Source: Patescibacteria group bacterium
GTDB taxonomy: Bacteria > Patescibacteriota > Patescibacteriia > UBA2591 > JAQUPP01
Assembly (NCBI GenBank): GCA_041649955.1
Contig: JBAZMD010000003.1
Location: 877-64,876, forward strand
Length of the DNA: 64,000 nt
Direction: 5' to 3'
Shown: piece after piece, positions 5,947-46,002 of the stretch
How positions within the stretch are numbered: position 1 is the stretch's first letter
Layout of the letters: every line of letters starts with the position of its first letter
Position numbers and translations under genes: made by a program
Notes under the pieces: model-generated
Database searches by the model: none
Told to the model about the DNA's origin: nothing
What the model saw: the letters and a program-made list of their open reading frames with translations, nothing else

Positions 5947-7206
5947 ATGTCTAAATTCATTATTCAAGGCGGAAAACATTTAAAAGGCGAAGTGGAAATA
6001 AAAGGCATGAAAAATGCGATTACTCCCATTATCGCGGCTACTCTTTTAACCGACGAAACTTGCGTTATTGATAATGTTCCAAAAATTTCCGATGTTGATA
6101 AAATGATTGATATTTTAAAAAGCTTGAGCAGTGAAATATCTTGGACCGGCGATCAGCAATTGACGATTTGCAATAAAAATATTTCTTTAAAAAGTTTGGA
6201 TGAGAAAGCGGTTAAAAGTTTGCGTTCTTCAATTTTATTTCTCGGTCCGTTATTAGCCAGATTTGGTAAGGTTGATTTACCGGAACCGGGCGGTTGCATT
6301 ATTGGCAAGCGGCCGATTGATGTTCATTTATCCGCTTTGAAAAGTTTAGGCGCTCAGATTATTGAAGATAATGGTTTTTATCATCTCAAAGCCGACAAGT
6401 TAATTGGCAGTAAGATTATTCTACCAGAATTTTCCGTTACCGCAACAGAGAATATCTTAATGGCTGCGGTCAAAGCTCAGGGCCAAACGATTATTAAATT
6501 GGCTGCCGAAGAACCTCATGTCCAGGATCTATGCAATTTTCTGAATAAAATGGGAGCGAAAATTTCCGGCATTGGCACTCATACTTTAATCATTGACGGA
6601 GTTGATAAGTTAAAAGGCACTCAATATAAAATTATTCCCGATCAAATAGAAATCGGCACTTTTATAGTTCTGGCCGCGGTCACTCATTCAGAGTTGCATA
6701 TTAAAAATATTGTTCCCGAACACTTGGATTTGATTCTTTTAAAATTAAAAGAAATCGGCGTTAAATTTGAATTAAAAGAAAATCAGTTGGATATTTATCC
6801 TTCATATAATTTAAAAGCTTTTAAATTGCAGGCTTTGCCTTATCCGGGTTTCCCCACTGATTTGCAGGCTCCATTCGCGCTTTTGGCAACTCAATGCAAT
6901 GGCGTCAGTTTGATCCAAGATCCGCTTTATGAAAGCCGGATGAGTTATGTCGGAGAATTGATTAAAATGGGAGCTAACGCGATTGTCGCTGATCCGCATC
7001 GCATAATTATCAGCGGTCCAACGCCTTTATACGGCCAAGAAATAAAAAGTTTTGATTTGCGCGCCGGAGCCACTTTGATTATTGCTGGTCTTTTAGCCGA
7101 AGGACAAACCGTTATTAACCAAGTTGAAATTGTTGACCGTGGTTATGAAAAAATTGAAAAAAGATTATCCCATCTCGGAGCTGAAATCAAGCGGGCGGAA
7201 AATTAA
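5947..7206 (+). CDS. murA: UDP-N-acetylglucosamine 1-carboxyvinyltransferase
   Basis: 'IQGGKHLKGEVEIKGMKNA', catalytic Cys context 'PGGCIIGKRPIDVH', full length ~419 aa. Confidence 0.9.
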   Translation: MSKFIIQGGKHLKGEVEIKGMKNAITPIIAATLLTDETCVIDNVPKISDVDKMIDILKSLSSEISWTGDQQLTICNKNISLKSLDEKAVKSLRSSILFLGPLLARFGKVDLPEPGGCIIGKRPIDVHLSALKSLGAQIIEDNGFYHLKADKLIGSKIILPEFSVTATENILMAAVKAQGQTIIKLAAEEPHVQDLCNFLNKMGAKISGIGTHTLIIDGVDKLKGTQYKIIPDQIEIGTFIVLAAVTHSELHIKNIVPEHLDLILLKLKEIGVKFELKENQLDIYPSYNLKAFKLQALPYPGFPTDLQAPFALLATQCNGVSLIQDPLYESRMSYVGELIKMGANAIVADPHRIIISGPTPLYGQEIKSFDLRAGATLIIAGLLAEGQTVINQVEIVDRGYEKIEKRLSHLGAEIKRAEN

Positions 7207-7369
7207 TTATTGTTAATAAATAGGATTGACTAATTTTTAAGGAGTGTTATATTAATTTCTATGCCCGCCTAAATTTTATTAAGATAGTTCATTTTTTAAA
7301 TCTAGGTGGAGCAAAATTAAACTTAAGAAGCATTGAAATATTATTTGAATTAATAAAATTTAAGCGGGT

Positions 7370-7696
7370 ATGTTAGCAATCAAACTATCAAGAATAGGAA
7401 AAAAACATCAGCCGTCTTTTAGACTGCTGGTTTTAGAAAAGTCCAAAGATCCGTGGGGAAATTTTTTGGAAGACTTGGGATATTATAATCCTTTGACCAA
7501 AAAATCATCTCTTAATAATGAGCGGATAAATTATTGGATTTCCAAAGGCGCTCAACCGACCAAGACGGTTCATAATTTGTTGGTTAATCTGCAAATTATT
7601 GCCGGCAAAAAGGTTAAGGTAACAAAAGTAACAATGAAAAATCAGGAAGCCAAGAAACAAGCCGATGCGAAAGAAGGAGAAAAAGCGGAAAAATAA
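7370..7696 (+). CDS. rpsP: 30S ribosomal protein S16
   Basis: 'MLAIKLSRIGKKHQPSFRLLVLEKSKDPWGNFLEDLGYYNP' canonical S16 N-terminus; upstream TTGACT-16nt-TATATT promoter at ~7226-7255. Confidence 0.9.
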   Translation: MLAIKLSRIGKKHQPSFRLLVLEKSKDPWGNFLEDLGYYNPLTKKSSLNNERINYWISKGAQPTKTVHNLLVNLQIIAGKKVKVTKVTMKNQEAKKQADAKEGEKAEK

Positions 7697-7771
7697 AGTG
7701 TTAGTCATTGAGACTTTTTGTTTTTCGTTAGAGTATTTTTATAATAGAAGATTTTTAAAAAATATAAAAAT

Positions 7772-8350
7772 ATGGTTATAGAAAAAGAGCCAACCAAAGA
7801 AATCAGAAATGAAATAGGTAAAAATCTTTCTGAAAAAGAAAGAGGACTTTTTTCTAAATTTAGAGAGAAAGCCGGAGATATAGGAAGAATCTTTATGTTA
7901 GCTACTTTGTTTGCAATAGGAACAGAGGCTCTAGCTAGTGAAGCTAAACCAGAAAAAGATATACGTTTAATTAGTACTATAGAAACTATGGGAAACTTAA
8001 TGAAAAGCGGAGTGGCCATAGAAAAGACAGATGATGGATTTGATGACTTTGTTTTTTCTAAACAGTATGTGCCAGATCCAGAAGGAATAATTGGTAGTTA
8101 TGTAAAACAAGAAATAGCATCAGTGGATGGAGTAACTACTGATTCTATAAAAATTACAGAAAAAAATCCACAAAAATTTGAAATCATTGCATATAATTCC
8201 GACGGATCAGAAGATCATATATTTACAGCAGAAGGTAAGGCGGATAGTTTAACTACCACTAAAAATGGAAAAACTCTTCAATCTCTCTCGAGTGAAGATC
8301 TTGAAAATCAGATACGTCAACAATTAAAAGCCCGACACCAAGGTCACTAA
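7772..8350 (+). CDS. Hypothetical protein (possible signal/TM segment), inserted between rpsP and KH-protein gene
   Basis: ORF only; hydrophobic stretch 'IFMLATLFAIGTEALA'; no recognisable domain. Confidence 0.4.
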   Translation: MVIEKEPTKEIRNEIGKNLSEKERGLFSKFREKAGDIGRIFMLATLFAIGTEALASEAKPEKDIRLISTIETMGNLMKSGVAIEKTDDGFDDFVFSKQYVPDPEGIIGSYVKQEIASVDGVTTDSIKITEKNPQKFEIIAYNSDGSEDHIFTAEGKADSLTTTKNGKTLQSLSSEDLENQIRQQLKARHQGH

Positions 8351-8366
8351 CTAAAATATTTTTATT

Positions 8367-8636
8367 ATGCCTATTGTCATAAAAACTACTGATCAAGAAA
8401 TTACAACCCTTATTCAAAAGTTAAATAAGTTAAAAGAAGAAGACAAAGATTTACTTATTTCTCTTTTGAGTCTTTTAAAAAAGAACGAGATTCGGATATT
8501 AAATCAAGATAAAAATTTATTAGAAATTTTACTAAAAAATATAAAAGAAAAGAGACAGGCTTTAAAAAATCTTAACGAACAAAAATTAAAAGAAATCTTA
8601 AAAACAGAAATAAGTTTTTTAGAAAACGTCAAATGA
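8367..8636 (+). CDS. Hypothetical coiled-coil protein
   Basis: ORF only; Leu/Lys/Glu-rich heptad-like sequence. Confidence 0.3.
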   Translation: MPIVIKTTDQEITTLIQKLNKLKEEDKDLLISLLSLLKKNEIRILNQDKNLLEILLKNIKEKRQALKNLNEQKLKEILKTEISFLENVK

Positions 8637-8818
8637 TCTCTTGACAGATTTTTTATTTTTTGTTATAGTATATAAAGTAAAAGTGCCAGTCTCAAATGTT
8701 TGTAAATTTTAAAAAACATTTGGAAAAAGGTCGGAAGGCTGGATGATTTAAAAGGTAGCAAGTATTGATGTCCTGACTTAGAAGGTGCAGGAATCAAGCA
8801 AACCATAAAAATACCAAT

Positions 8819-9127
8819 ATGGCAGTAAAAGCAAAAGATCAAGAATTTATAGAGTACGTTGTCAAGGCGCTTGTAGTCCACCCAGACGATGTTAAAGTCG
8901 TTCGCACAGTTGACGAAATGGGTGTTCTTCTTTCTTTAAGGCTTAATCCGGAAGATATGGGACAAATAATTGGTCGAGAAGGTTCAACCGCTCGAGCAAT
9001 TAGAACTCTTATCCGCATTATCGGCTTAAGAAATAATGCGCGCATTAATCTTAAAATCGAAGAACCGGAAGGATCTACACGCGGAGTGAGAAGCACTTCC
9101 AGCGCGGTAGACGATTTAAAATTATAA
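8819..9127 (+). CDS. KH-domain RNA-binding protein (YlqC/UPF0109 family)
   Basis: 'VVKALVVHPDDVKV...IIGREGSTARAIRTLI' = KH GXXG motif; conserved position between rpsP and trmD. Confidence 0.8.
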   Translation: MAVKAKDQEFIEYVVKALVVHPDDVKVVRTVDEMGVLLSLRLNPEDMGQIIGREGSTARAIRTLIRIIGLRNNARINLKIEEPEGSTRGVRSTSSAVDDLKL

Positions 9128-9147
9128 TTTTTACTCAATAGGGAAAT

Positions 9148-9182
9148 AAAATCACTACCCTTTTGGGTGGTGGTTTTATTTT
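9148..9182 (+). terminator. Rho-independent terminator after KH-protein gene
   Basis: Hairpin aaatcactaccc/gggtggtggttt followed by T-run. Confidence 0.5.
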
Positions 9183-9237
9183 AACGATTTTGTCTGCGAG
9201 GGCAAATCAAAGGCGAAGCCCGAGCAGGTATAAAATC

Positions 9238-9360
9238 GTTACCCCCTCTTTTATCTCAACGATAAATTTTCGATAATCGTTAGGATAAAAGGCGAAGCCG
9301 CTTCACTTACGGAATATTGTAAAACGAAAGGCTCTCGATGGAGTAAAAGAGGGGGTGCTC
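9238..9360. repeat. Degenerate inverted-repeat element (family B-like: TACCCCCTCTTTTATCTC ... GAGTAAAAGAGGGGGTGCTC)
   Basis: Inverted termini seen directly; internal segment 'ataaaaggcgaagccgcttcacttacggaatattgtaaaacg' resembles internal segment of element at 29119-29245. Confidence 0.5.
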
Positions 9361-9427
9361 AAAAATCTAATAAAAAATTTGCTCCGCCGGTTGGCGGATC
9401 AAACTTGAATTTTTTAAAATTTTTGGC

Positions 9428-10102
9428 ATGAAATTTGATATTTTGACAATTTTCCCGGATATTTTTGAAAATTATTTCAATGCTTCAATTATTAAACGAG
9501 CTCAAGAAAAAAAAATAATTAAAATTAAGGTTCATAATTTTCGTTCTTTCACTGCCGACAAACATAAAAAAGTTGATGACAAACCTTATGGCGGCGGTCC
9601 GGGAATGATTTTAAAAATAGAACCATTATATAATGCTCTTACAAAACTAAAATTTTTTCCAAAAACCAAGAATCAGAAAATTATTTTATTCACTCCGCAA
9701 GGAAAAAAGTTTGATCAAAAAATGGCAAGACGTTTGTCAAAATTGGAAAGAATAATTTTAATCTGCGGGCGATACGAAGGCGTAGATGCCAGAATTGATA
9801 AATTTATTGATGAAAAAATTTCCATTGGCGATTATGTTTTGACAGGAGGAGAACTACCGGCCATGATTTTGACAGATGCTATTACCAGATTGATTCCAGG
9901 GGTTATTACTTCAGAATCTCTTAAAGAAGAGTCATTCGGCGATTCAGAGTTAACCACAGAATATCCACAATACACCCGTCCGGAAGTCTTTACATTTAAA
10001 GATAAATTTAGTAAAATTAAAAAACTTATTGTGCCGAAAGAATTGCTTTCAGGCAATCATCAAAAAATAGAGAAATGGAGACAAAAACATTTCGGCAGTT
10101 AA
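9428..10102 (+). CDS. trmD: tRNA (guanine37-N1)-methyltransferase
   Basis: 'MKFDILTIFPDIFENYF...GGGPGM' canonical TrmD. Confidence 0.9.
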   Translation: MKFDILTIFPDIFENYFNASIIKRAQEKKIIKIKVHNFRSFTADKHKKVDDKPYGGGPGMILKIEPLYNALTKLKFFPKTKNQKIILFTPQGKKFDQKMARRLSKLERIILICGRYEGVDARIDKFIDEKISIGDYVLTGGELPAMILTDAITRLIPGVITSESLKEESFGDSELTTEYPQYTRPEVFTFKDKFSKIKKLIVPKELLSGNHQKIEKWRQKHFGS

Positions 10103-10233
10103 TAAGAGTACGTTGACAATTTAGATATTAGAAGCCTATTAATCTAAAAACATTAGTCTATTCAAACGCAAATCAAAGCGGGTAGCTAATCTGTTTCTTA
10201 ATTATAAATTTTGGATCAAATAATCTCTTTTAA

Positions 10234-11750
<1,517 letters not shown>

Positions 11751-11949
11751 AGAGGACTTATATTTTTTCTATTACTTTCGAGTAATAGAAAAATTAAGGT
11801 CGAAGGTTAGTTTACCCGCTTTGATTTGCGTTTTTAGAGCAAGAAAACCAGTTGACTTAACTGGTTTTTTTGTTTAGAATAAATAACAACTCCGACGCTT
11901 TGAAGGTCGGAGCCCCGACTGTAACGTCGGGGTGAGAATATTTAAAATA

Positions 11950-12112
11950 GGGGTTGACCCCCATACCTGAACGGCGATAAAATACTCAGTAACGTATTTT
12001 TAAATTTTTTTAAAAATAGAAATAAATTTTATAATTTAAAACAGATTAATCAAATAAAATGAACAATTTCTCGCATTTTAAAAATATATCGCCGTTTGGT
12101 GCGGGGGTTGAC
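11950..12112. repeat. MITE-like inverted-repeat element, family A (termini GGGGTTGACCCCCATACCTGAACGGCGAT / ATCGCCGTTTGGTGCGGGGGTTGAC, AT-rich core)
   Basis: Perfect/near-perfect 25-bp terminal inverted repeats in 16S-tRNA-Ile spacer. Confidence 0.6.
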
Positions 12113-12149
12113 TAATAATATAATTTTGTTAATATTAAAATGATTTTTT

Positions 12150-12224
12150 GCGCGAGTAGTTCAATGGTAGAACGCGTCTCTGATAAAGACGAGGTTGAAG
12201 GTTCGATTCCTTCCTCGCGCACCA
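12150..12224 (+). tRNA. tRNA-Ile (anticodon GAT), CCA encoded
   Basis: Cloverleaf: acceptor gcgcgag/ctcgcgc, anticodon loop ctGATaa, T-arm ggttcgattcc. Confidence 0.85.
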
Positions 12225-12298
12225 AAATAATAAAATATCAAATTATAATTTATAGCATAATTAAAACGTACTTTTAAAATTTAGAAAGGGGGTAGAAC

Positions 12299-13408
12299 AT
12301 GTCAAGAAAAAAGATGACGTATGCGGGGACAGGCGTTGATTATAATGCCATGGATCCATTCAAGCGACAGGCGCAACTTTCTGCGCGAAAGACTGCCGGA
12401 AATATCAAACGACTCGGTTTTTTAGAAGTTGAGATGAGTCGCGGCGAAAGTGTTTATCTTGTTGAAACACCAAATAGTTTTCTCGCTCAAGTTGAAGAAG
12501 GGCTTGGTACAAAAAATCTTGTCGCTGATGAGATGTATCGTCTTACCGGTAAGTCATATTACGATCAAATTGCGCAGTGTACTATGGCAATGATCGTGAA
12601 TGATATGATTACGCTTGGCGCATTACCATACTCAGCGGCAATGCATCTTGCTGTCGGTACTTCCAACTGGTTTAATGATAAAAAACGGTGTTATGATCTT
12701 ATTGAGGGTTGGAAGAAGGCGTGCAATCTCGCACGCTGTGCATGGGGCGGAGGCGAAACGCCAACCTTGAAAGGTATTATCATACCAAGCACAGTCTTAC
12801 TCTCTGGTTCGGCAAGCGGTATTATAAAGCCAAAAAAGCGGCTTATTAATAACGTGAACATTCAGAATGGCGATGCGATTATCTTTGTCGAAAGTTCAGG
12901 TATTCATGCAAACGGTCTTACAATGGCTCGAGAGATTGCCGACAAGTTGCCGGACGGCTACATGACAAATCTTATTGATGGACGAACCTATGGCGAAACA
13001 CTGCTCGACCCCACTCACATTTACGTCTCACTTGTTGAAGACTGTCTTAATCGCGGTGTTAATATCCATTATGCGGTGAATATCACGGGACATGGCTGGC
13101 GCAAATTGATGCGTGCGCCCAAACCATTTGCCTACATTGTTGAATATTTGCCGAAGCAACTTCCAATCTTTGATTTTTTGCAAAAGCATGGTCCTGTGGA
13201 TGACAAGGAAGCATATGGTAATTTCAACATGGGTGCGGGATTTGCGCTATATGTGCCGGAGACAGACATAACAAAAATTCAAGAAGTGGCTAAAAATCTT
13301 GGATTTAATGTATTGTACGCCGGACATATTGAACGAAACAAAATGAAGAAAGTCGTTATTAAACCAAAGGGTCTTGAATATGCTGGAACAACACTCGGTG
13401 TTCGTTGA
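12299..13408 (+). CDS. PurM-like (AIR synthase-related) protein; GC content clearly higher than neighbours
   Basis: Motif correspondence with PurM: 'GVDYNA', 'GLGTKNL', 'MIVNDMITLGALPY', 'GGGETPTL', 'SSGIHANG', 'NITGHGW', 'FNMGAGF'; strong RBS aaaggggg; hairpin terminator at ~13415-13455. Confidence 0.7.
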   Translation: MSRKKMTYAGTGVDYNAMDPFKRQAQLSARKTAGNIKRLGFLEVEMSRGESVYLVETPNSFLAQVEEGLGTKNLVADEMYRLTGKSYYDQIAQCTMAMIVNDMITLGALPYSAAMHLAVGTSNWFNDKKRCYDLIEGWKKACNLARCAWGGGETPTLKGIIIPSTVLLSGSASGIIKPKKRLINNVNIQNGDAIIFVESSGIHANGLTMAREIADKLPDGYMTNLIDGRTYGETLLDPTHIYVSLVEDCLNRGVNIHYAVNITGHGWRKLMRAPKPFAYIVEYLPKQLPIFDFLQKHGPVDDKEAYGNFNMGAGFALYVPETDITKIQEVAKNLGFNVLYAGHIERNKMKKVVIKPKGLEYAGTTLGVR

Positions 13409-13650
13409 CAGATAATAATCTCCAAAGGGGGTTCGCAATCAATATAGCGAGCCCCTTCTTATTTTCATAAAAGTATTGAAAAATTTTATGAAATGAGTTA
13501 TAATTAATTCATAAAATAAAATAGCTTGATTTTATTTAAAATTTTTGGTAGAATAAGTTCAAATAAAGTTGAAATAATTACACTATTTTTTTGGGCACTT
13601 GGCGCAGTAAGAGTCTGTTAATAACTATATTTGCAGATTAGTATCACAGA

Positions 13651-14364
13651 GTGTATAATATATACATGAAATCAAAGTGGTACGAATTAAAAAATAATGC
13701 TGTTAAATTACGCCAACAAGGGATTTCTATAGGTAAAATTGAACATCGCCTAAAAATACCTCGTTCAACTCTCAGCGGTTGGTTTAAGAATATTCAATTA
13801 ACGCCGAAACAGAAGAAAAAATTATTGGCAAATCAAAAAAATGCTTTAGTTAAAGCGCGTAAAAAAGCGGTTTTTTGGCATAACGAGCAGAAAAAAATAA
13901 GACTTCAAGAAGCAGAAAACGAGGCTATTAAAACATTAAAGAATATTGATATTAATAATCAAAATATTCTTGAAGTGGCGATAGCTTTTCTCTATCTGGG
14001 CGAGGGATCAAAAAATAATTTAGAAACTGCTCTTGGCAGTTCAAATCCATTAATTTTAAAATTTTTCGTGGCAGCAATCAGAAAGGTTTATAAATTAGAT
14101 ATCAATAAAATAAGATGTGAATTGAGTTTAAGGGCAGATCAAGATCCCGAAGAAATGAAGAAATTTTGGGCTAAAACTCTTAAATTGCCCATTTGTAATT
14201 TTAAACAAATAAATATAGACCGAAGAACAAAGGGATCTAAAACGTACCCTTATTACAAGGGTGTATGCCATTTAAGATGCAGTAATGCAGCCATTCAAAG
14301 AAAATTGATATATCTGGGAAATTTATTTTGTCATAAAGTAATAGATAAAAATTTGGGTTCATAG
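13651..14364 (+). CDS. LAGLIDADG-family homing endonuclease (single-motif) with N-terminal HTH-like region
   Basis: 'ILEVAIAFLYLGEGSKNN' fits LAGLIDADG motif; N-terminal 'GISIGKIEHRLKIPRSTLSGWFKN' HTH-like. Confidence 0.55.
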   Translation: MYNIYMKSKWYELKNNAVKLRQQGISIGKIEHRLKIPRSTLSGWFKNIQLTPKQKKKLLANQKNALVKARKKAVFWHNEQKKIRLQEAENEAIKTLKNIDINNQNILEVAIAFLYLGEGSKNNLETALGSSNPLILKFFVAAIRKVYKLDINKIRCELSLRADQDPEEMKKFWAKTLKLPICNFKQINIDRRTKGSKTYPYYKGVCHLRCSNAAIQRKLIYLGNLFCHKVIDKNLGS

Positions 14365-14381
14365 TTCAGCTGTCGTTTTAA

Positions 14382-14456
14382 GCGCGATTGGCTCAGTGGT
14401 AGAGCGCGTCGTTGACATCGACGAGGTCGCAGGTTCGATCCCTGCATCGCGCACCA
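14382..14456 (+). tRNA. tRNA-Val (anticodon GAC), CCA encoded
   Basis: Acceptor gcgcgat/atcgcgc, anticodon loop ttGACat, T-arm ggttcgatcc. Confidence 0.85.
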
Positions 14457-14460
14457 TAAA

Positions 14461-15129
14461 ATGAGGGATAAAATCAGAGATTTGTCTCTTATTTTATTTC
14501 TTGACAAAATAGTTATTTATTATATTATTAAAATAAATCAAAGAGCCGAAAGCTTTTTTGAAAAAGGAGGAGAAATGATCAAAGAAAAAAGAATAAATAG
14601 TTTTGTTGAAAAATTATTCAGCAGTAAAGACTATTGGCGTTTCCCTATCGGGGAAGCAAATCTTCTTAAAACCAAAGAAGTAGAAGGTTGGAATAAGAGA
14701 TTTAAAAAGAACAGCCGTAAAAATTTTGGCATTGATTTGAGAACGCCACTTAAATGCAAAGAATCCAACTGTTATTTAACTCAAAAACAAAGGTGCAAAG
14801 ACTGTCAAAAAACAGAAAAACAAAGAGTAGAACTTAATATTTCACTAAAACATTTCCCGGCGGTTTTCGATAGAATTTTCTTTGCGGAAAAAGCATTTGA
14901 TAAGGTTGCTCAACAATTCGGGTTAAGTTTGTCACAGACCAACATGGGAGATTGGAGATTATGGGAAAAAAATGAAAAAGGAAGTTTTTCTGTTGCCGAG
15001 TTGGAAGCATATGGTTTTCGCATAAGCGGAAGATTCAACGGCAAAATGAAGTTTCGAGACGCCAAGGGATTATTTATAGAGTTATTGAAAATTTATTTAG
15101 ATGCCCATAAAGACTGTTGCCAATGGTAA
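14461..15129 (+). CDS. Hypothetical protein (true start probably Met at ~14575, 'MIKEKRINSF')
   Basis: ORF only; Cys-rich segment 'CKESNCYLTQKQRCKDCQK'; followed by strong terminator. Confidence 0.4.
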   Translation: MRDKIRDLSLILFLDKIVIYYIIKINQRAESFFEKGGEMIKEKRINSFVEKLFSSKDYWRFPIGEANLLKTKEVEGWNKRFKKNSRKNFGIDLRTPLKCKESNCYLTQKQRCKDCQKTEKQRVELNISLKHFPAVFDRIFFAEKAFDKVAQQFGLSLSQTNMGDWRLWEKNEKGSFSVAELEAYGFRISGRFNGKMKFRDAKGLFIELLKIYLDAHKDCCQW

Positions 15130-15135
15130 TAAATA

Positions 15136-15176
15136 GGGGTCGAAAAGTTGAAAAACTTTCGACCCCTAAATTTTTT
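15136..15176 (+). terminator. Rho-independent terminator
   Basis: ggggtcgaaaag...ctttcgacccc hairpin + T-run. Confidence 0.7.
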
Positions 15177-15213
15177 CATTGCAAAATTTCAGAAAATGAG
15201 CTAATGTTAATTT

Positions 15214-16701
15214 ATGTTATCTAAAAATACGAACAATTTTAAGTTGAATTTGGAGTTCCTAAATAAGGATAAGAATTTTAGTTTTTTAAATAAACTCCAG
15301 AAGAAATTTCCCAAAGCGGAAATTTATTTGGTTGGCGGCGCAGTTAGAGATTTATTTTTAAAAAAGGAAACCAAAGATTATGATTTTGTCATCTGTAAAG
15401 TTAAAATATCTGATTTGGAAAAATTTTTAGCGAATTTGGGACAAGTGGAATTTGTCGGCAAAAGTTTTGGTGTTTTCAAGTTTACACCCAAGGGCGGAGA
15501 TAAGCATAATCCTTTTGATATTGCCTTGCCTCGCCGCGATTTTTCTTTTAATACCGGCGGTTATCGCGATGTGAAAGTTTTAACTAATCCCAACTTGCCG
15601 ATTGAAGAGGATTTATCTCGCCGCGATTTTACGATTAATGCCATTGCGGTTGAAATTAAAACAGGTAATATTATTGATCCGTTTAACGGCTTAAAAGACC
15701 TCAAAAACAAGATTATTCGGTCAGTTGGCAAGCCGAAAGATCGATTTAAAGAAGATTATTCCAGAATGCTGCGAGCGATAAGATTCGCCTGCCAATTGGA
15801 TTTCCAAATTGAAAAAAATACTTGGCAAGCCATTAAATCTAAAATTAAATCAATTACCAAAGCAGTGCCTTATGAAATTATTGCCCGGGAATTTCTAAAA
15901 TCTTTTTATTTCAATCCGGTTAAAGCTTTAGATTTATTTGATCAAAGCGGATTTTTTAAAGTAATAATGCCGGAAATTTTAAAAATGAAAAATTGTCCGC
16001 AACCGAAAAATTTTCATTCCGAAGGAGATGTTTGGGTGCATACGCGCTTGGCACTGGAAAAATTATTTTCTCCTCAATTCAAAAAGCAATTTGGCGATGA
16101 AAGACCGAATACAGAATTGATTATCGCCACTCTTTTCCATGATTTGGGAAAGCCGCCAACAATTCAAACTCCGGAAAAAAATCATACTGACCGTATTCGT
16201 TTTAATGAACATGATGTGGTGGGTGCGGAAAAAACCAAAAAAATTTGCGAGAGATTAAAATTTTCAAGTCCTGAAAATTTTGGTGTTGATCCGGAAAAAA
16301 TCGCCTGGTTGATTAAAAATCACATGCTTTTGGTCCACGGCAATGCTCTTAAAATGCGGCCTCAAACCATTGAAAAATATTTTTTTAATCCAAATTTGCC
16401 GGGCGAAAATTTGTTAAAACTTTCGTTTGCGGATATTTCGGCCACTATTTTGGAAAAAGGCCATTCGGATTTTGGTGATTTCAAAAATATGCTGAAAAGA
16501 ATTAAAGAATTAAAAAAATTAAGCGCCAACAAGAAGGAATTACCTAAGCCGATTTTAAACGGCAATGAAATTATGAAAGAATTTAAGTTAAAACCCGGAC
16601 CCAGAATAGGCGAATTGTTGGAGATTTTAAGAGAAAAACAGCTTGAAGGAAAAATTAAAGATAAAAAATCAGCCTTGACTTTTTTTAAAAACCTAATATA
16701 A
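15214..16701 (+). CDS. cca: CCA-adding tRNA nucleotidyltransferase with HD domain
   Basis: PolyA-pol/CCA head 'LVGGAVRDLFL...DYDFV...RRDFTINA'; HD motif 'HTRLALE...LFHDLGKP'. Confidence 0.8.
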   Translation: MLSKNTNNFKLNLEFLNKDKNFSFLNKLQKKFPKAEIYLVGGAVRDLFLKKETKDYDFVICKVKISDLEKFLANLGQVEFVGKSFGVFKFTPKGGDKHNPFDIALPRRDFSFNTGGYRDVKVLTNPNLPIEEDLSRRDFTINAIAVEIKTGNIIDPFNGLKDLKNKIIRSVGKPKDRFKEDYSRMLRAIRFACQLDFQIEKNTWQAIKSKIKSITKAVPYEIIAREFLKSFYFNPVKALDLFDQSGFFKVIMPEILKMKNCPQPKNFHSEGDVWVHTRLALEKLFSPQFKKQFGDERPNTELIIATLFHDLGKPPTIQTPEKNHTDRIRFNEHDVVGAEKTKKICERLKFSSPENFGVDPEKIAWLIKNHMLLVHGNALKMRPQTIEKYFFNPNLPGENLLKLSFADISATILEKGHSDFGDFKNMLKRIKELKKLSANKKELPKPILNGNEIMKEFKLKPGPRIGELLEILREKQLEGKIKDKKSALTFFKNLI

Positions 16702-16707
16702 TGATTT

Positions 16708-17424
16708 TTGTCTAAATTTTCAAGTCCAACCATGAATTTCAAAATTTTAATAATTTCGGAAGATAAGGATTATTTGGTTATTGAGAAGCCAAGCGGATTA
16801 TTGGTGCATCCTACCAAATATCAGAAAGAAAATACCTTAGTGGATTGGCTGATTGAAAATTATCCTGAAATAAAGCAAATTGATGGAGGCGAAAGGCCTG
16901 GAATTGTTCATCGTTTAGACCAAAATGTTTCAGGGTTGATGATAATCGCCAGAAATCAAAAATCATTTGAATATTTTATTGATCAGTTTAAAAATAGCCG
17001 GGTTAAAAAAGAATATTTGGCTCTGGTTTGCGGACGGCCCGCTCAAGAAAAAGGAACAATTGAATTGCCGATCGGCCGGACAAAAAAAGGAAAATTAGTT
17101 GTTGTGCAATCTAGAAAAAAGATTAAAATTTCCAAGCCGGCAGTAACCGAATACGAAGTTGTTCAAAAATTTCCAAAATTTACTTTATTAAAACTCAGGC
17201 CGTTTACCGGCCGAACGCATCAGATTCGTCTTCATCTGCAATCAATCGGCTGTCCGATTGTCGGAGACAAACAGCACGGCAAAGCAAAAACTGATTTAGA
17301 CAGAATTTTTCTCCATGCCAGTTATCTGGGTTTTTACGACTTGAATAATCAATGGCAAGAATTTAAAAGCGATTTACCAGAAGAACTAAAGAGTTTTCTT
17401 GAAAATTTCAAAACTGAAAGTTGA
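16708..17424 (+). CDS. RluA-family 23S rRNA/tRNA pseudouridine synthase
   Basis: 'LVIEKPSGLLVHP', catalytic 'HRLDQNVSGLMIIARN'. Confidence 0.85.
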   Translation: MSKFSSPTMNFKILIISEDKDYLVIEKPSGLLVHPTKYQKENTLVDWLIENYPEIKQIDGGERPGIVHRLDQNVSGLMIIARNQKSFEYFIDQFKNSRVKKEYLALVCGRPAQEKGTIELPIGRTKKGKLVVVQSRKKIKISKPAVTEYEVVQKFPKFTLLKLRPFTGRTHQIRLHLQSIGCPIVGDKQHGKAKTDLDRIFLHASYLGFYDLNNQWQEFKSDLPEELKSFLENFKTES

Positions 17425-17596
17425 AGAAATTTTTACTAGAAAACCTTTACCCCGCATTAAGCCCGCTTATAGAAAATATAATAAGTCGCAATTAAGCCGC
17501 AGGCGATGCAGCGCGCAAAATTAATATTAAAAATTAAATTTTATTAAGCTTTGGTGCGCGGGTAACAAATTTTTTAAATAAAAAAGTGAGATAAAA

Positions 17597-18151
17597 ATGG
17601 GTAAATTAATTATCATTTCCGGGCCCTCCGGGGCAGGTAAGGACAGCATAATTGAAGGTCTTAAAAAAGAGAATCTTGATTTTTTTGAAGTAGTAACCAC
17701 CACTACGCGTCCAATGAGGCAGGGCGAATCAGAAGGCCATCCTTATCATTTTGTTTCAAAAGAAAAATTTGAACAAATGATAAAAAATGATGAGTTGGTT
17801 GAACATGCTTTGGTTTACGAAAATTATTACGGTTCTCAGAAAAAAGATGTTGAAGAATTATTGAAGTCGGGCAAAACGGTTATTTTTAAAATTGATTGCC
17901 AAGGTGCAAAGACAATTAAAACCAAACTTCCTCAAGCAAAAGTAATTTTTATCATTTCGCCGTCAATTGAAATTTTGGAAAAACGATTGCGCGACAGAAA
18001 ACAAGATTCGGAAGAAGTGATTCAAAGGCGGGTAGCCGAAGCGCAAAAAGAATTAGCCACTCTTGATAATTGGGATTATGTTATTACTAATAAAGAAGGG
18101 GAATTAGAAGAAGCCGTGAAACGAGTTAAAGAAATTATTATTTCGCTTTAA
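17597..18151 (+). CDS. gmk: Guanylate kinase
   Basis: P-loop 'GPSGAGKDS', 'TTRPMRQGE..G..YHFV'. Confidence 0.9.
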   Translation: MGKLIIISGPSGAGKDSIIEGLKKENLDFFEVVTTTTRPMRQGESEGHPYHFVSKEKFEQMIKNDELVEHALVYENYYGSQKKDVEELLKSGKTVIFKIDCQGAKTIKTKLPQAKVIFIISPSIEILEKRLRDRKQDSEEVIQRRVAEAQKELATLDNWDYVITNKEGELEEAVKRVKEIIISL

Positions 18152-18177
18152 TATATTAATCAAAATTAAAATATAAT

Positions 18178-18522
18178 ATGGAAGATATAAAAAAAGAAAA
18201 AAAAGAAGCCAGCGTTACTGACATTAAACCGGGAATGATAATTAAAATTTATCAAAAAATAAAAGAACCCGATGCGAAAGGAAATATGAAAGAAAGAATC
18301 CAAATTTTTGAAGGTATGGTCATTTCTCGTCATGGCGGAAGTACGCCCGGAGCCACTTTTACCGTCAGCAGAAAAGCGGCTGACAATATCGGCGTGGAAA
18401 AAATTTATCCTTTATATTCGCCGACGATTTCAAAAATAGAAATAATGAAAAAGTTTAAAGTCAGAAGAGCTAAATTGAATTTCTTAAAAGATCATTCCAA
18501 AAAATTAAAGGAAATAAAATAA
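18178..18522 (+). CDS. rplS: 50S ribosomal protein L19
   Basis: 'ERIQIFEGMVISRHGGSTPGATFTVSRK...GVEKIYPLYSP' canonical L19. Confidence 0.9.
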   Translation: MEDIKKEKKEASVTDIKPGMIIKIYQKIKEPDAKGNMKERIQIFEGMVISRHGGSTPGATFTVSRKAADNIGVEKIYPLYSPTISKIEIMKKFKVRRAKLNFLKDHSKKLKEIK

Positions 18523-18539
18523 AGTAATTGTTATTTTGG

Positions 18540-18626
18540 GCGGACGTGGCGGAACTGGTATACGCGCATGCTTGAGGTGCATGTGGGAGCAATCCTGCGA
18601 GGGTTCGAATCCCTCCGTCCGCACCA
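18540..18626 (+). tRNA. tRNA-Leu (anticodon GAG), long variable arm, CCA encoded
   Basis: Acceptor gcggacg/cgtccgc, anticodon loop ttGAGgt, variable arm tgggagcaatcctgcga, T-arm gggttcgaatccc. Confidence 0.85.
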
Positions 18627-18653
18627 AAAACTAAAATATAGAAATTATAATAT

Positions 18654-18727
18654 GGGCCCGTGGTATACCGGTAACACGCTTCCATGGCATGGAAGAGTAA
18701 GGGGTTCGATTCCCCTCGGGTCCACCA
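18654..18727 (+). tRNA. tRNA-Ala (anticodon GGC) with G3:U70, CCA encoded
   Basis: Acceptor gggcccg/cgggtcc (G3-U70), anticodon loop atGGCat, T-arm ggggttcgattcccc. Confidence 0.85.
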
Positions 18728-18757
18728 AAATTTAACAGGGGCGTCGGGTTTTATCAG

Positions 18758-18829
18758 GGGCAATTAGCTCAATGGTAGAGCGTCTCGTTTACACCGAGAA
18801 GGTTGTAGGTTCGATCCCTACATTGCCCA
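18758..18829 (+). tRNA. tRNA-Val (anticodon TAC), no encoded CCA
   Basis: Acceptor gggcaat/attgccc, anticodon loop ttTACac, T-arm ggttcgatccc. Confidence 0.85.
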
Positions 18830-18878
18830 TTTAAGAGGGCAAATAAGGGCGAAATACACTCTTAAACATACAAATTTC

Positions 18879-18950
18879 GCCAGGGTAGCTCAGTGGTAGA
18901 GCGAAGGACTGAAAATCCTTGCGTTGGCAGTCCGATTCTGCCCCCTGGCA
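18879..18950 (+). tRNA. tRNA-Phe (anticodon GAA), no encoded CCA
   Basis: Acceptor gccaggg/ccctggc, anticodon loop ctGAAaa, T-arm ggcagtccgattctgcc. Confidence 0.85.
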
Positions 18951-18955
18951 TATTA

Positions 18956-18984
18956 AAAGACCGTAGATTTCTACGGTCTTTTAA
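18956..18984. terminator. Bidirectional Rho-independent terminator
   Basis: gaccgtagatttctacggtc hairpin flanked by A-run and T-run between convergent tRNA cluster and minus-strand gene. Confidence 0.7.
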
Positions 18985-19004
18985 TTATTTATATTTTTCA
19001 AATT

Positions 19005-19856
19005 TTACAGAGATTTTTTATAGACTTCCATAATTTCTCTCAACCGTTTTTCGTCAATGGCTGGCATTTCTATTCCCAAATTTTTGGCTTTTTGATTGGA
19101 TAAAACGCAATTGCTTCGTTTAGCGCTGGTAATATTATAAAGTTCATTCAAAGAAATTAATTCATATTGATGACTTGGATTGACTATTTCTTGATAGGCT
19201 TTGAGCATTTGTTCGTGGGTCAAATAATTGTCATTCACTAAATTTAAAATGCCAATCGGACGGATTTCGGCCAATTTAACCAAGGCCGGAAACATATCTT
19301 CAATTAAAGTCACGGAATTAGGTAAAGAAATAACTTTTTTATAAGAAATTATTTTATTAAGCAGATTGCGCGGATGAGAATGCATGGAAATCGGCATTCT
19401 GATTCTAAGTTGGAGAACGGGTAATTCTTTAAGCGCCATTTGCATCGCGACTCTCATTTGGGAATAAAAACTGCCGAAAAAATTCGGTTCATCTTCTTCG
19501 CTAAAAGGTGTTTCCGGCGTGCCGGAATAAATACAACCCGAAGCGATTTGGATCATAAAGCTTGACGCTTCCAGAGCGGCCAAAGCGACGTTAATCGCTC
19601 CCGCCACATTGACCGCCACAGTTTCTTGTTTATGAGTTTCACACCAATCAATATTCGGATAAGCTCTGACGCCGGCAAAATTAATCACCACATCAGGCTT
19701 GGTTTCCTGAAATTTTTTCTTTAAAGCCGGCAAATCGGTAATATCAATTCTTTCGCTGAAAACTTCAAAATTATTTTGTTTCAAATATTCCACGAATTTT
19801 CCGCCCATAAATCCGCTTGCCCCCAAAATATAAAAATTTGGTTTTTTATTTTCCAT
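19005..19856 (-). CDS. NAD(P)-dependent epimerase/dehydratase family protein (RmlD/dTDP-4-dehydrorhamnose reductase-like)
   Basis: N-terminal Rossmann 'ILGASGFMGGKF', short-chain dehydrogenase/epimerase architecture. Confidence 0.65.
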   Translation of the reverse strand: MENKKPNFYILGASGFMGGKFVEYLKQNNFEVFSERIDITDLPALKKKFQETKPDVVINFAGVRAYPNIDWCETHKQETVAVNVAGAINVALAALEASSFMIQIASGCIYSGTPETPFSEEDEPNFFGSFYSQMRVAMQMALKELPVLQLRIRMPISMHSHPRNLLNKIISYKKVISLPNSVTLIEDMFPALVKLAEIRPIGILNLVNDNYLTHEQMLKAYQEIVNPSHQYELISLNELYNITSAKRSNCVLSNQKAKNLGIEMPAIDEKRLREIMEVYKKSL

Positions 19857-26902: not shown

Positions 26903-27052
26903 AACCTTTACCCCCTCCTTTTGAGTGCTTTTAAATTCATATATAAAGACTTAATAAAGAAAGAGAGACAATTCTAAAATATAAAAGTTAGTTATCTTAA
27001 ACAACGGATTTAAAGGAGTACTGAAAGCATCTAAAAGGAGGGGGTACTCAAA
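26903..27052. repeat. Family-B inverted-repeat element, 'empty' copy (~150 bp, no ORF)
   Basis: Termini 'AACCTTTACCCCCTCCTTTTGAGTGCTTTT' and 'GGAGTACTGAAAGCATCTAAAAGGAGGGGGTACTCAAA' match (in reverse orientation) both ends of the GIY-YIG-containing element at 29758-30050. Confidence 0.65.
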
Positions 27053-27111
27053 ATTATAGTAAAATTTCCTTCTCCGCCAGCCGGCGGATCTAAAATTTTA
27101 ATAATTTTGGT

Positions 27112-29757: not shown

Positions 29758-30050
29758 TTTGAGTACCCCCTCCTTTTAGATGCTTTCAGTACTCCTTTTA
29801 ATTCGTTTTTTAAGATAACCCCAAGCACTTTTATATTTTTTAAGCTGTTTTTCTCGTTCCATTGCGTCTTTTTTATCTTGGTAGGCTTCATAATATATTA
29901 AGCCTAAAATTTGTTTCTCGCGTTGGTGGGTTTTAATTCTTTTCTTCAAGTCCGTAGAGAAACCAACATATATCGTTTCATTCGGTAATTTGACTAGATA
30001 GACATAATACATAAGTTCAAAAGCACTCAAAAGGAGGGGATAAAGGTTTT
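29758..30050 (-). mobile_element. Family-B TIR element carrying a GIY-YIG nuclease gene, inserted between rpmI and rplT
   Basis: Termini match the empty element at 26903-27052; internal ORF is GIY-YIG. Confidence 0.65.
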
Positions 30051-30078
30051 GTTGCTCCGACTTAACGTCCGGAGACAA
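29776..30078 (-). CDS. Small GIY-YIG nuclease family protein (true start probably Met at ~30012, 'MYYVYLVKL')
   Basis: 'YYVYLVKLPNETIYVGFSTDLKKRIKTHQ' = GIY-YIG motif block; ORF-track N-extension is encoded by the element's inverted-repeat terminus. Confidence 0.75.
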   Translation of the reverse strand: MSPDVKSEQQNLYPLLLSAFELMYYVYLVKLPNETIYVGFSTDLKKRIKTHQREKQILGLIYYEAYQDKKDAMEREKQLKKYKSAWGYLKKRIKRSTESI

Positions 30079-33453: not shown

Positions 33454-33900
33454 ATGGCAGAATTCACACAAGAAACATTAGGCTCTGAATTTTCGGGCAA
33501 TAAAAAATCACCCAGCAGGCGAATGGGGATTATTTTATTAATTGCCGGAATTATTATTTTAGTCGGAATCGTAGTTATGCTGTTGCTGATGGTTATTCCA
33601 GTTAAACAAACTTCTTGGCAAGCGGTGAATGTCGACAATAATCAGATATACTTTGGTCATATTGTTAAAGATAATGGCAAAGTGTTGATTTTGAAAGACG
33701 TCCATTATTTACAGATGCAGCAAATAGCGGCAACTAAAGAAGGAGAACAGCCAAGCCAACAATTAACAGTTGTTAAAGCAGGCAGCGAAGTTTACGGACC
33801 GACCGGCGAGATGATAATTAATTGGGATCATATTGTTTTCACTCAAAAACTTAGAACAGATTCACAAGTTATTGCAGCTATCAATAACTTGGGTAAATAA
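33454..33900 (+). CDS. Hypothetical single-pass membrane protein
   Basis: ORF; TM 'GIILLIAGIIILVGIVVMLLLMVIPV'. Confidence 0.4.
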   Translation: MAEFTQETLGSEFSGNKKSPSRRMGIILLIAGIIILVGIVVMLLLMVIPVKQTSWQAVNVDNNQIYFGHIVKDNGKVLILKDVHYLQMQQIAATKEGEQPSQQLTVVKAGSEVYGPTGEMIINWDHIVFTQKLRTDSQVIAAINNLGK

Positions 33901-37184: not shown

Positions 37185-37220
37185 ATTTGGTTATTGTTAT
37201 TTAAGCAGATTTTTGGGTTT

Positions 37221-37387
37221 TCGTCAACCCCCACACCAAACGGCGATTTGTATTTTTTTAAATACGAAATTATTTAATTCTGTATTTAAGATTACTTATT
37301 TATTTGTCTAAAATTTATCTTATTTCGAAAATCCAAAAAATACAAAAATTGAGCATTTATCGCCATTCTGGTGTGGGGGTCAAGCCC
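37221..37387. repeat. MITE-like element family A (termini CGTCAACCCCCACACCAAACGGCGAT / ATCGCCATTCTGGTGTGGGGGTCAAGCCC)
   Basis: Near-perfect 26-bp TIRs, AT-rich ~110-bp core, between ACP-like operon and ileS. Confidence 0.6.
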
Positions 37388-37441
37388 TTGCTTTTTTATT
37401 TTTTTCTGTTAAAATTAAGTTATTAAAACTTTTTATCCAAT

Positions 37442-42976: not shown

Positions 42977-43660
42977 TTGCATATATTTATGCTTAATCAA
43001 AGATCAAAATATTTACAAATAGCTTTTAACCGCTCTCTTGATGAAGTAAGAAATATGATCGCACTGCTTCCTGCTTCGGAAAAAATAATTATTGAAGCCG
43101 GAACTCCTTTGATTAAAAAATACGGCAAGACGGGTATAATTGCATTAAAAAATTGGTGGAGTGGGAAAATACAGAAACAGGGGTATATTGTTGCTGATTT
43201 AAAATGTATGGATAGGGGCTCAAGAGAAGTTGAAGCAGTTGCTGAGGCAGGTGCTTCCGCGGCTACTTGTTTGGGTTTAGCGCCGACGGAAACTATAAAT
43301 GAATTTATTAGAGAATGCGAGAAAGCCGGTATTGATTCAATGATTGATATGATGAATGTTGAATTTCCGTTTGAAATTTTACAAAAATTAAAAAAACTTC
43401 CTACCGTGGTTGTATTACACCGCGGAGTAGATGAAAAAGAAAAAAACAGAGAAAAAAAGATTCCGCATGATCAAATTCATAAGATAAAAGGAACTTATGG
43501 CAATGTTTTAATATCAGTCGCAGGCGGAGAAACTCCGCGCGATGTTGTAAGAACTTTTTTTAATGATTCTAATATTGCTGTAATTTGGCAATCATTTTAC
43601 GAAACACCGGGAAATACCGCTAATTTAGCGCAGGAATTTTTAAAAACGATCAAAAAATAA
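42977..43660 (+). CDS. 3-hexulose-6-phosphate synthase-like (OMP decarboxylase suprafamily) protein, paralog 1
   Basis: 'LQIAFNRSLDEV...IIEAGTPLIKKYG...YIVADLKCMD' matches HPS/KGPDC signature (E, D-x-K-x-x-D). Confidence 0.65.
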   Translation: MHIFMLNQRSKYLQIAFNRSLDEVRNMIALLPASEKIIIEAGTPLIKKYGKTGIIALKNWWSGKIQKQGYIVADLKCMDRGSREVEAVAEAGASAATCLGLAPTETINEFIRECEKAGIDSMIDMMNVEFPFEILQKLKKLPTVVVLHRGVDEKEKNREKKIPHDQIHKIKGTYGNVLISVAGGETPRDVVRTFFNDSNIAVIWQSFYETPGNTANLAQEFLKTIKK

Positions 43661-45578: not shown

Positions 45579-45878
45579 TTACATTAAGCTTTTTTCTATT
45601 CTAATTTTAAGCTGATGATAAACCCGACTATATTTTTTTAATCGAGACTCTCTTTGTTTAGCGTCTTCTCTAGATTTATATGATTCGTAATAAATTATTT
45701 CAAATGGACGTCTCGGTTTAGTCGCTTTAACTAATCCTTTATTATGTTCAATAAAACGTTTTTTTAAATCGTCAGTAAAACCAATGTATAATTTTTTATC
45801 TTTTTTACTTTTCAATAAATATACATAAAACATAATCAGTTGGAAATTTTGGAGCGGGCTCCACCACCTGAATGGCAA
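45579..45878 (-). CDS. Small GIY-YIG nuclease family protein (true start likely Met 'MFYVYLLKS' ~45833)
   Basis: 'FYVYLLKSKKDKKLYIGFTDDLKKRFIEHNKG' GIY-YIG block; ORF-track N-terminus 'MPFRWWSPLQ' is read from the inverted-repeat terminus. Confidence 0.75.
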   Translation of the reverse strand: MPFRWWSPLQNFQLIMFYVYLLKSKKDKKLYIGFTDDLKKRFIEHNKGLVKATKPRRPFEIIYYESYKSREDAKQRESRLKKYSRVYHQLKIRIEKSLM

Positions 45879-46002
45879 TGTATTTTTTATAAATGCGAAA
45901 TCATTGCTTCTAATAAATAAATCTATATTTTTTTTCTTTATAATCTAATCTTTTTCAAAAATACATAACAAGCATTTATTGCCATTCTGGTGGTGGAGCG
46001 GG
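45851..46002. repeat. MITE-like element family A variant (GAGCGGGCTCCACCACCTGAATGGCAAT / ATTGCCATTCTGGTGGTGGAGCGGG), right end overlapping tRNA-Trp 3' end
   Basis: TIRs seen directly; right terminus contains tRNA-Trp acceptor 3' strand + CCA. Confidence 0.55.

Follow-up and report, generated by a model that had tools for sequence, protein, structure and literature searches.

We analyse here the position and apparent expression of a 16S ribosomal RNA (rRNA) gene in a metagenome-assembled genome of Patescibacteria, the candidate phyla radiation (CPR), using a 64,000-nt stretch of its DNA that we call the window (GC content ~35%). All positions are those of the window, and features lie on its forward (+) strand unless marked (-). 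Rfam was searched for rRNA and other RNA families, Pfam for domains in the open reading frames (ORFs), and ARAGORN was used for tRNAs. The 16S rRNA gene occupies 10228-11750, at full length and without insertion; its match to RF00177 (1454.7 bits, model positions 1-1533) is that of a complete bacterial small-subunit rRNA, and it begins 125 nt past trmD on the same strand. A preliminary description of this DNA had put the gene at 10235-11750, which has the correct end and a start 7 nt too late. The 5′ end of a 23S rRNA gene appears at 63510-64000, where the window cuts it off (RF02541, 265 bits, model positions 1-405), and the Rfam search of the window returned no 5S rRNA. From the 16S 3′ end to the 23S 5′ end there are 51,759 nt on the same strand, holding ~52 ORFs of at least 70 aa (greedy ORF call, both strands), in agreement with the ~52 kb and ~50 protein genes described earlier. 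This interval carries housekeeping genes: glyS, mreB, thyX, rplT, infC, smpB with the transfer-messenger RNA gene, ileS, recO, tgt, a DEAD-box helicase gene, uppP and pyrG.

The gene string around the 16S gene, assigned with Pfam and ARAGORN, lies entirely on the + strand from a murA-like gene (5947-7206) to a tRNA cluster after rplS. Ahead of the 16S gene stand rpsP, encoding ribosomal protein S16 (7370-7696; Ribosomal_S16, E = 2.9e-18), a gene for a KhpA-type KH-domain RNA-binding protein (8819-9127; KH_KhpA-B, E = 3e-20) and trmD, encoding the tRNA m1G37 methyltransferase (9428-10102; tRNA_m1G_MT, E = 3.2e-57). Behind it, Pfam identifies cca (15214-16701), a gene for an RluA-family pseudouridine synthase (16708-17424), gmk (17597-18151) and rplS (18178-18522). 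Together, Rfam, Pfam and ARAGORN bear out the earlier claim that the 16S gene is embedded in the string rpsP-KH-trmD ... cca-rluA-gmk-rplS. The trmD operon has the order rpsP-rimM-trmD-rplS in Escherichia coli and rpsP-ylqC(KH)-ylqD-rimM-trmD-rplS in Bacillus subtilis. The window resembles these operons in that rpsP, KH and trmD keep their order and strand, with rplS further downstream. In contrast to them, it has no rimM between rpsP and trmD, its genes seem to fall into several transcription units, and rplS does not follow trmD directly; it comes 8.1 kb after trmD, behind the 16S gene, two tRNAs, cca, rluA and gmk.

Ribosomal RNA genes are classic sites of metagenome mis-assembly, and GC content goes up from ~35% to 43-46% over the 16S gene; both count in favour of a chimera in which the 16S gene was mis-joined into the trmD region. 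We compared the window with close relatives, contigs that were retrieved by exact-protein look-ups of TrmD homologues and are given L numbers. The rpsP-KH-trmD-16S junction is present in L081-L083 (TrmD 96-99% and 16S 99% identical, 125-nt spacer), which are independent assemblies (NCBI GCA_028690995.1, ENA ERZ27249449 and JGI 3300014208), and the window, L081 and L082 share, at 100% identity, a 141-nt segment that runs from the trmD stop across the 125-nt spacer into the 16S 5′ end. TrmD itself is 100% identical to that of a Patescibacteria metagenome-assembled genome. At a greater distance, trmD is followed by a 16S gene after 182-315 nt in L084-L087, L089 and L090 (TrmD 64-68% identical). 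The L090 16S gene is just 75% identical to that of the window, and the trmD-16S adjacency therefore spans a deep divergence. The junction also occurs in dozens of unrelated CPR contigs, and the window's 16S leader and trailer are complementary to each other, which is not expected at chimeric joins. The comparison with related genomes for which the preliminary description had called thus reproduces the trmD-16S order, and since the same junctions recur in separately made assemblies and in relatives whose TrmD is as little as 64% identical, the assembly error that it had named as its own refutation is ruled out. We give a mis-join next to no chance.

The relatives also keep the order of genes beyond the 16S gene. 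A backbone of 16S, tRNA-Ile(GAT), tRNA-Val(GAC), cca, rluA, a nucleotide kinase gene, rplS and tRNAs recurs in L082, L084, L085, L087 and L089, although L087 lacks rluA and, in the tRNA scan of the first four, showed no tRNA-Val(GAC). It is found in minimal form in L085, where only 3.4 kb separate 16S and rplS. Because relatives keep this backbone, the 16S gene is truly embedded between trmD and rplS in the window's lineage.

A canonical rrn operon runs from a promoter and leader through 16S, tRNA-Ile/tRNA-Ala and 23S to 5S, and each rRNA in it is bracketed by an RNase III stem. The window's 16S gene is like such an operon in having a leader/trailer stem and tRNA-Ile(GAT) after the 16S gene, and it may share a sigma-70-like promoter upstream. 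The promoter-like site (10113-10142) has a -35 element TTGACA at 10113-10118, an 18-nt spacer and a -10 element TATTAA at 10137-10142 (10/12 matches). It begins 10 nt 3′ of the trmD stop codon and is 100% identical in L081 and L082. The 5′ leader contains a 21-nt arm (10164-10184) that is the perfect complement of an arm in the 3′ trailer (11813-11833); when cofolded, leader and trailer reach -65 kcal/mol, compared to -29.6 +/- 3.7 kcal/mol for shuffled sequences (z = -9.7). Most other lineages examined have long leader/trailer stems with unrelated sequences, in which the pairing is kept. The stem matches the pattern expected of a pre-16S RNase III helix, and it is probably cleaved as one. Directly past the trailer, the window differs from a canonical rrn operon: a hairpin followed by a T-run (11840-11879; -16.1 kcal/mol, z = -6.0) resembles an intrinsic terminator, and the 23S-5S pair, instead of being co-transcribed 3′ of the 16S gene, lies 52 kb away behind pyrG. 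The block of blastn similarity with L081 and L082 stops at 11874, the end of this hairpin.

The same architecture was sought in a wider sample. Two scans of contig collections with TrmD yielded at least 160 loci on genome and metagenome contigs, mostly from distant relatives; these are samples rather than a census, and the locus counts given here and below hold among the loci listed. Loci were called CPR-like if the KH protein upstream of trmD is at least 55% identical to that of the window. A 16S gene lies 3′ of trmD on the same strand in 7 of 18 CPR-like species-representative loci and in 0 of 58 non-CPR loci. It is found within 1.5 kb of trmD in 14 of 25 CPR-like metagenome loci with enough flank, compared to 2 of 19 non-CPR metagenome loci; for these two no KH gene was found upstream, and they are possibly unclassified CPR. 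Conversely, rplS comes within 2 kb of trmD in none of 43 CPR-like loci, versus 44 of 58 non-CPR genome loci and 10 of 19 non-CPR metagenome loci. The surveyed CPR 16S genes linked to trmD are 72-78% identical to the window's, and these loci therefore represent deep divergences. In eight of them (L091-L095, L103, L120 and L160), a 23S gene follows 1.4-3.4 kb after the 16S gene, with tRNA-Ile(GAT), usually together with tRNA-Ala(TGC), in between; these loci retain the canonical 16S-tRNA-Ile-tRNA-Ala-23S order. We also considered the insertion of a whole rRNA operon between trmD and rplS and rejected it, as no rplS hit turned up within the flanks of L103 or L120, two of the loci that keep 16S and 23S near each other.

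Across these lineages, the signals on both sides of the 16S gene recur with it. Of 25 distinct CPR trmD-16S junctions, 16 have an exact TTGACA between -20 and +50 of the trmD stop, compared to 3.0% of control windows; it is usually followed, after a 16-18-nt spacer, by a TAnnnT -10 element. The promoter match is complete (12/12) in L091 and L093, and in L093, L095, L120 and L131 the TGA stop of trmD forms part of the -35 hexamer (T-TGA-CA). A terminator-like hairpin is located 85-190 nt past the 16S gene in 14 of 17 distinct CPR loci, versus 8.5% of shuffles, and it is present even in loci whose 23S gene lies only 1.4-3.4 kb further on. We think it probable that the 16S gene is a self-contained, single-gene transcription unit docked behind trmD, and that this arrangement was inherited from far back in the CPR.

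Several points weigh against this conclusion. All three steps, from promoter firing through stem cleavage to termination, are read from sequence. Taken alone, the window's 16S promoter match is not significant against shuffles (fraction 0.095), and a promoter scan, which demands T at position 6 of the -10 element, skips TATTAA, so that the site was scored separately; it carries weight only because of its conservation across lineages. The exact TTGACA is missing from the 314-315-nt spacers of L084, L085 and L089, and L087, L090 and L092 are without a terminator-like hairpin 3′ of the 16S gene. Finally, membership of the CPR-like class is a heuristic, and the CPR fractions describe samples.

The preliminary description had suggested a rearranged ribosomal super-operon, in which the 16S gene would be transcribed mainly with rpsP, KH and trmD, perhaps on to rplS, as one long transcript. 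The gene order and the unlinked 16S and 23S genes stand, and two features speak for the long transcript. The 125-nt trmD-16S spacer is unstructured (z = -0.44) and contains no terminator-like site, and in L082 trmD begins a few nucleotides past the T-rich tract of a hairpin that follows KH, so that trmD expression there needs either read-through or an internal promoter. However, that hairpin itself resembles a terminator: in the window it has an 18-bp stem followed by a T-rich tract (9143-9182; -24.4 kcal/mol, z = -7.5), and it is shared with L082. A strong promoter-like site precedes rpsP (7226-7253; TTGACT-16-TATATT with TG), and KH has another (8641-8669; TTGACA-17-TATAGT, TG-extended, 11/12 matches, kept in L082). 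Strain-variable insertions separate the units, and the conserved TTGACA at the trmD stop (16 of 25 lineages) and the terminator-like hairpin after 16S (14 of 17) would divide the string on both sides of the 16S gene. An rRNA also needs far more transcription than an mRNA expressed at the level of trmD. We regard transcription of the 16S gene chiefly as part of such a super-operon as unlikely; with promoter-like sites and hairpins among them, the genes from rpsP to rplS look like several separate units laid end to end. Because no terminator-like site separates trmD from 16S, trmD transcripts probably run into the 16S leader. Limited trmD-16S co-transcription is plausible, but unlikely to supply most of the 16S rRNA.

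The adjacency might instead be a neutral relic of one ancestral rearrangement, kept by inertia and without regulatory meaning. Its patchiness is what such a relic would show: 11 of the 18 CPR-like species-representative loci have no 16S gene in the flank, unrelated genes are wedged between trmD and 16S in several loci, and reduced genomes often have unlinked rRNA genes whose neighbours differ from lineage to lineage (10.1101/705046; PMC8172020). Inertia accounts poorly, however, for a junction that persists across lineages with 72-78% identical 16S genes, when its surroundings (7737-8639, 9184-9427 and 12299-14364) turn over between strains whose TrmD proteins are 96-99% identical. The overlap of the -35 element with the trmD stop in four lineages supplies a concrete reason for retention. 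We consider the neutral account quite unlikely, and an rRNA promoter that abuts or overlaps the trmD 3′ end may instead be what keeps 16S attached to trmD.

We now turn to the other half of the rRNA genes. Upstream of the window's 23S gene is pyrG, encoding CTP synthase (60695-62314; CTP_synth_N, E = 6e-103), whose product is 100% identical to the PyrG of a Patescibacteria contig that also matches TrmD at 100%. A close relative, L171 (117.6 kb; PyrG 97% and trmD 99% identical), carries the order pyrG-23S-5S-tRNA-Ile(TAT)-tRNA-Ala(TGC), with a complete 23S gene at 12150-15321 and a 5S gene at 15386-15494. The 23S and 5S genes thus stay together elsewhere in the genome, as seen in this relative, and counterparts of the 5S gene and of the rest of the 23S gene, whose location the preliminary description had left as a check, are both found there. 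In contrast to a canonical rrn operon, tRNA-Ala(TGC) comes after 5S in L171. In L172, whose PyrG is 75% identical, no 23S gene stands beside pyrG. Since the pyrG-23S pair is present in L171 and absent from L172, the present 23S site is recent.

The word rearranged fits one half of the rRNA genes and not the other. A departure of the 23S-5S pair agrees with the comparison; an arrival of the 16S gene does not, as trmD-16S adjacency is common in many CPR lineages, several of which have a 23S gene 1.4-3.4 kb past the 16S gene. It is most parsimonious to read rpsP-KH-trmD / 16S-tRNA-Ile-tRNA-Ala-23S as an old CPR arrangement. The CPR ancestor, or that of a large CPR subgroup, would have had rpsP-KH-trmD, then 16S, then tRNA-Ile-tRNA-Ala-23S-5S, with no rimM and no adjacent rplS; in the window's lineage, the 23S-5S pair would then have separated and the 16S gene stayed with trmD. 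The lineage-specific event would be the departure of 23S-5S, and not the arrival of 16S. Because the terminator-like hairpin follows the 16S gene even where 23S is near, the functional uncoupling of 16S from 23S may predate their physical separation, and it may be widespread in the CPR.

The expression of the locus would proceed as follows. A sigma-70-type promoter (10113-10142) would fire ~80 nt 5′ of the mature 16S rRNA. The leader (10164-10184) and trailer (11813-11833) arms, whose complementarity is observed, would pair into a classical RNase III-type pre-16S substrate and be cut, and transcription would stop at the hairpin and T-run at 11840-11879. Transcripts of trmD that enter the 16S leader would probably be cut off there, as a by-product and not as the main 16S source. 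The tRNA-Ile(GAT) gene and the downstream inserts, tRNA-Val, cca, rluA, gmk, rplS and the tRNA cluster would form separate units, and the 23S-5S pair would be expressed independently, 52 kb away behind pyrG.

A bolder proposal is that, across much of Patescibacteria, the promoter for 16S, or for a whole rRNA operon, is fused to the trmD 3′ end and that this reflects functional coupling, whereby transcription and translation of the S16-KhpA-TrmD genes modulate the rRNA promoter and the 3′ ends of trmD mRNA arise from RNase III cleavage of the leader stem. We hold this to be doubtful, though conceivable. If true, the output of a module for ribosome assembly and tRNA modification would be linked to rRNA synthesis in bacteria that have lost rimM and many regulators.

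Unlinked rRNA genes in the CPR are already published. Brewer et al. (10.1101/705046) name Patescibacteria as one of the clades whose rRNA genes are unlinked, by which they mean a 16S-23S distance above 1500 bp; the 51,759 nt of the window exceed it. Lui et al. 2021 (PMC8172020) give 27 of 34 circularised CPR genomes as unlinked, and the rRNA spacers there contain tRNAs, homing endonucleases and protein genes. The window is like these cases in its single-copy 16S gene, its small, low-GC CPR genome and the protein genes and tRNAs between its rRNA genes. It differs from them in what is described, as the accessible portions of both papers classify distances and do not describe the position of the 16S gene. 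In the searchable literature, whose coverage is incomplete, we found no report of trmD-16S adjacency, of a promoter at the trmD stop or of a terminator after 16S in nearly linked CPR loci, and recurrent docking behind trmD is possibly a new comparative detail. It adds a concrete anatomy, namely an apparent 16S unit with promoter, stem and terminator that is anchored at the end of trmD in many divergent CPR lineages. If a full survey confirms it, the arrangement would provide a positional marker to find and check 16S genes in fragmented CPR bins, would suggest that functional 16S/23S uncoupling by a terminator past 16S preceded physical separation, and would connect rRNA synthesis to the S16/KhpA/TrmD module in a way that can be tested, in bacteria where ribosome biogenesis is poorly understood.

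The missing rimM gene appears to be a CPR-wide feature of the trmD locus. As described before, the window has none: a Pfam scan of its ORFs, hypothetical ones included, found no RimM or PRC-barrel domain in any ORF scanned. The median gap between KH and trmD is 122 nt across 67 CPR-like loci, versus 580 nt elsewhere, and 53 of the 67 have a gap of at most 300 nt. The larger gaps might hide a RimM; this was considered and rejected, as four of the ORFs found there were scanned and none was a RimM.

In the window, this gap holds a 244-nt, strain-specific insertion (9184-9427), located between the KH hairpin and trmD and not present in L081 or L082. It folds into three stable hairpin domains (minimum free energy -82 kcal/mol, z = -5.4) and includes an imperfect inverted repeat (9241-9272 / 9325-9356, 75% complementary). 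The repeat element earlier reported at 9238-9360 is thus real; its supposed occupation of rimM's place is not, because relatives have only a few nucleotides at this position and the insertion is therefore not a replacement of rimM. Rfam has no match for the insertion, and a search of 7000-19200 with E-values up to 1 returned only rRNA and tRNAs, with no known RNA family in the KH-trmD or trmD-16S spacers. Elsewhere, only a partial, 83-nt stretch of 73% similarity occurs, at 27034-27110. The insertion might encode a small structured RNA or represent a miniature mobile element.

A second strain-specific insertion, at ~7737-8639, accounts for the two hypothetical ORFs noted earlier between rpsP and KH. 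It is not present in L081 or L082, despite their 96-99% identical TrmD, and it contains ORFs of 192 aa (7772-8350) and 89 aa (8367-8636), neither of which has a Pfam or PHROG function. The KH promoter segment is repeated at its two borders, once in degenerate and once in intact form, and both copies align to L082 9450-9481.

The gaps between trmD and rplS are insertion hot spots. L082 carries MazG between 16S and tRNA-Ile as well as free-standing GIY-YIG ORFs, L084 has an island of helix-turn-helix (HTH) and PycTM genes between tRNA-Ile and tRNA-Val, L081 has histidine-biosynthesis genes and purA, and L089 dcd and a methyltransferase gene. In the window, ARAGORN places tRNA-Ile(GAT), the canonical post-16S spacer tRNA, at 12150-12224; it comes after 16S in all relatives examined, and a promoter-like TTGACT lies 5′ of it at 12108. 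Its partner tRNA-Val(GAC), at 14382-14456 (ARAGORN), accompanies it in L081, L082, L084 and L085. Between the two is a strain-variable insert (12299-14364) that is not found at this position in L082 or L085, comprising a PurM/AIRS-like gene (12299-13408; AIRS/AIRS_C in Pfam) and an ORF at 13651-14364. From tRNA-Val to cca, the ORF list adds a hypothetical ORF of 222 aa (14461-15129), overlooked in the preliminary description, which has no Pfam or PHROG match and does not align in L082. The intergenic sequence ahead of tRNA-Ile includes a repeat with copies at 11949-12115, at 37220-37388 (-) and at L082 14820-14923, 72-85% identical and bearing a promoter-like motif GGGGTTGAC. Two adjacent GC-rich hairpins stand 5′ of it at 11890-11932 (-26 kcal/mol, z = -4.2).

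The ORF at 13651-14364 had been labelled a LAGLIDADG gene, a name that neither profiles, nor a PDB sequence search, nor the predicted fold supports. Its sole resemblance to that family is a 'LYLGEGS' motif at a helix end. No Pfam family scores above its curated cut-off, and with E-values up to 10 there are only weak, N-terminal HTH matches; the PDB sequence search returned nothing relevant, and PHROGs matches are of unknown function or regulators (phrog_1207, E = 1.6e-33). An AlphaFold2 model is confident (predicted local distance difference test score 89.4), including a C-terminal alpha/beta domain, and Foldseek found no PDB match at E <= 0.001 for it; the best is YfiB at a template modelling score of 0.25, with no LAGLIDADG protein among the 50 shown. 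We therefore reject the LAGLIDADG identity and describe the ORF as a conserved CPR protein with an N-terminal HTH. It has 951 homologues of ~232 aa, of which the top ones listed are 59-92% identical and, where named, come mainly from Patescibacteria. A distant homologue (28%) lies just 3′ of trmD in L112.

From cca onward, the order cca-rluA-kinase-rplS is common to L082, L084, L085, L087 and L089, with rluA missing in L087. In the window and L082, the kinase 5′ of rplS is a guanylate kinase; at the same position in L084, L085, L087 and L089 it is cytidylate-kinase-like (AAA_17/18). The tRNA cluster 3′ of rplS, Leu(GAG)-Ala(GGC)-Val(TAC)-Phe(GAA) at 18540-18950 (ARAGORN), is kept in L082 and L085 and partly in L087.

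Between pyrG and 23S, the -35 element of a promoter-like TTGACT-17-TATAGT (63048-63076) shares bases with the TGA stop of an ORF at 62341-63051, and a terminator-like hairpin (63187-63209) follows ~110 nt later. The region 63048-63215 is kept in L171, where the ORF is missing, and on these features it could be a small RNA unit.

The 16S 3′ end (11735-11750) reads ...GGAACACCTCATTT, giving an anti-Shine-Dalgarno CCUCA instead of CCUCC, and GGAG or GAGG occurs in the 20 nt 5′ of the start in 0 of 49 window genes. In L091-L094 and L160, the 16S 3′ tail lacks a CCUCC-like anti-Shine-Dalgarno altogether (...GGATGGAAAATATTTTT / ...GGAATATTTCTTTTT), and other CPR loci retain CACCTCCTT there. TATAAT-like hexamers stand 5-8 nt 5′ of several starts (e.g. 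13666, 19856(-), 22128 and 47881), and their position right before the starts suggests leaderless mRNAs. Among the surveyed loci, L007 (Kerfeldbacteria) has an ORF between trmD and 16S, on the opposite strand (14880-15701 (-)), that appears RNase III-like by eye, with the motif NEGLEFLGDRVLG.

Three free-standing GIY-YIG ORFs of 86-100 aa, at 29776-30078 (-), 45579-45878 (-) and 51503-51763 (+), each adjoin tRNA genes (tRNA-Asp at 29011, tRNA-Gly/Pro at 45994-46238 and tRNA-Ser at 51890, respectively). Similar ORFs occur in the trmD-rplS region of L082 (15039-15308 and 17109-17354) and L089 (18467-18727). A 148-aa window ORF (33454-33900) has a weak match to PycTM, a Pycsar effector family, and the island in L084 (14857-16727), between tRNA-Ile and tRNA-Val, is a clearer PycTM/HTH case; the PycTM ORFs may represent small defence islands at hot spots linked to tRNAs. 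Finally, two adjacent ORFs of 227 and 307 aa at 42977-44583 both match the orotidine monophosphate decarboxylase/HUMPS family.

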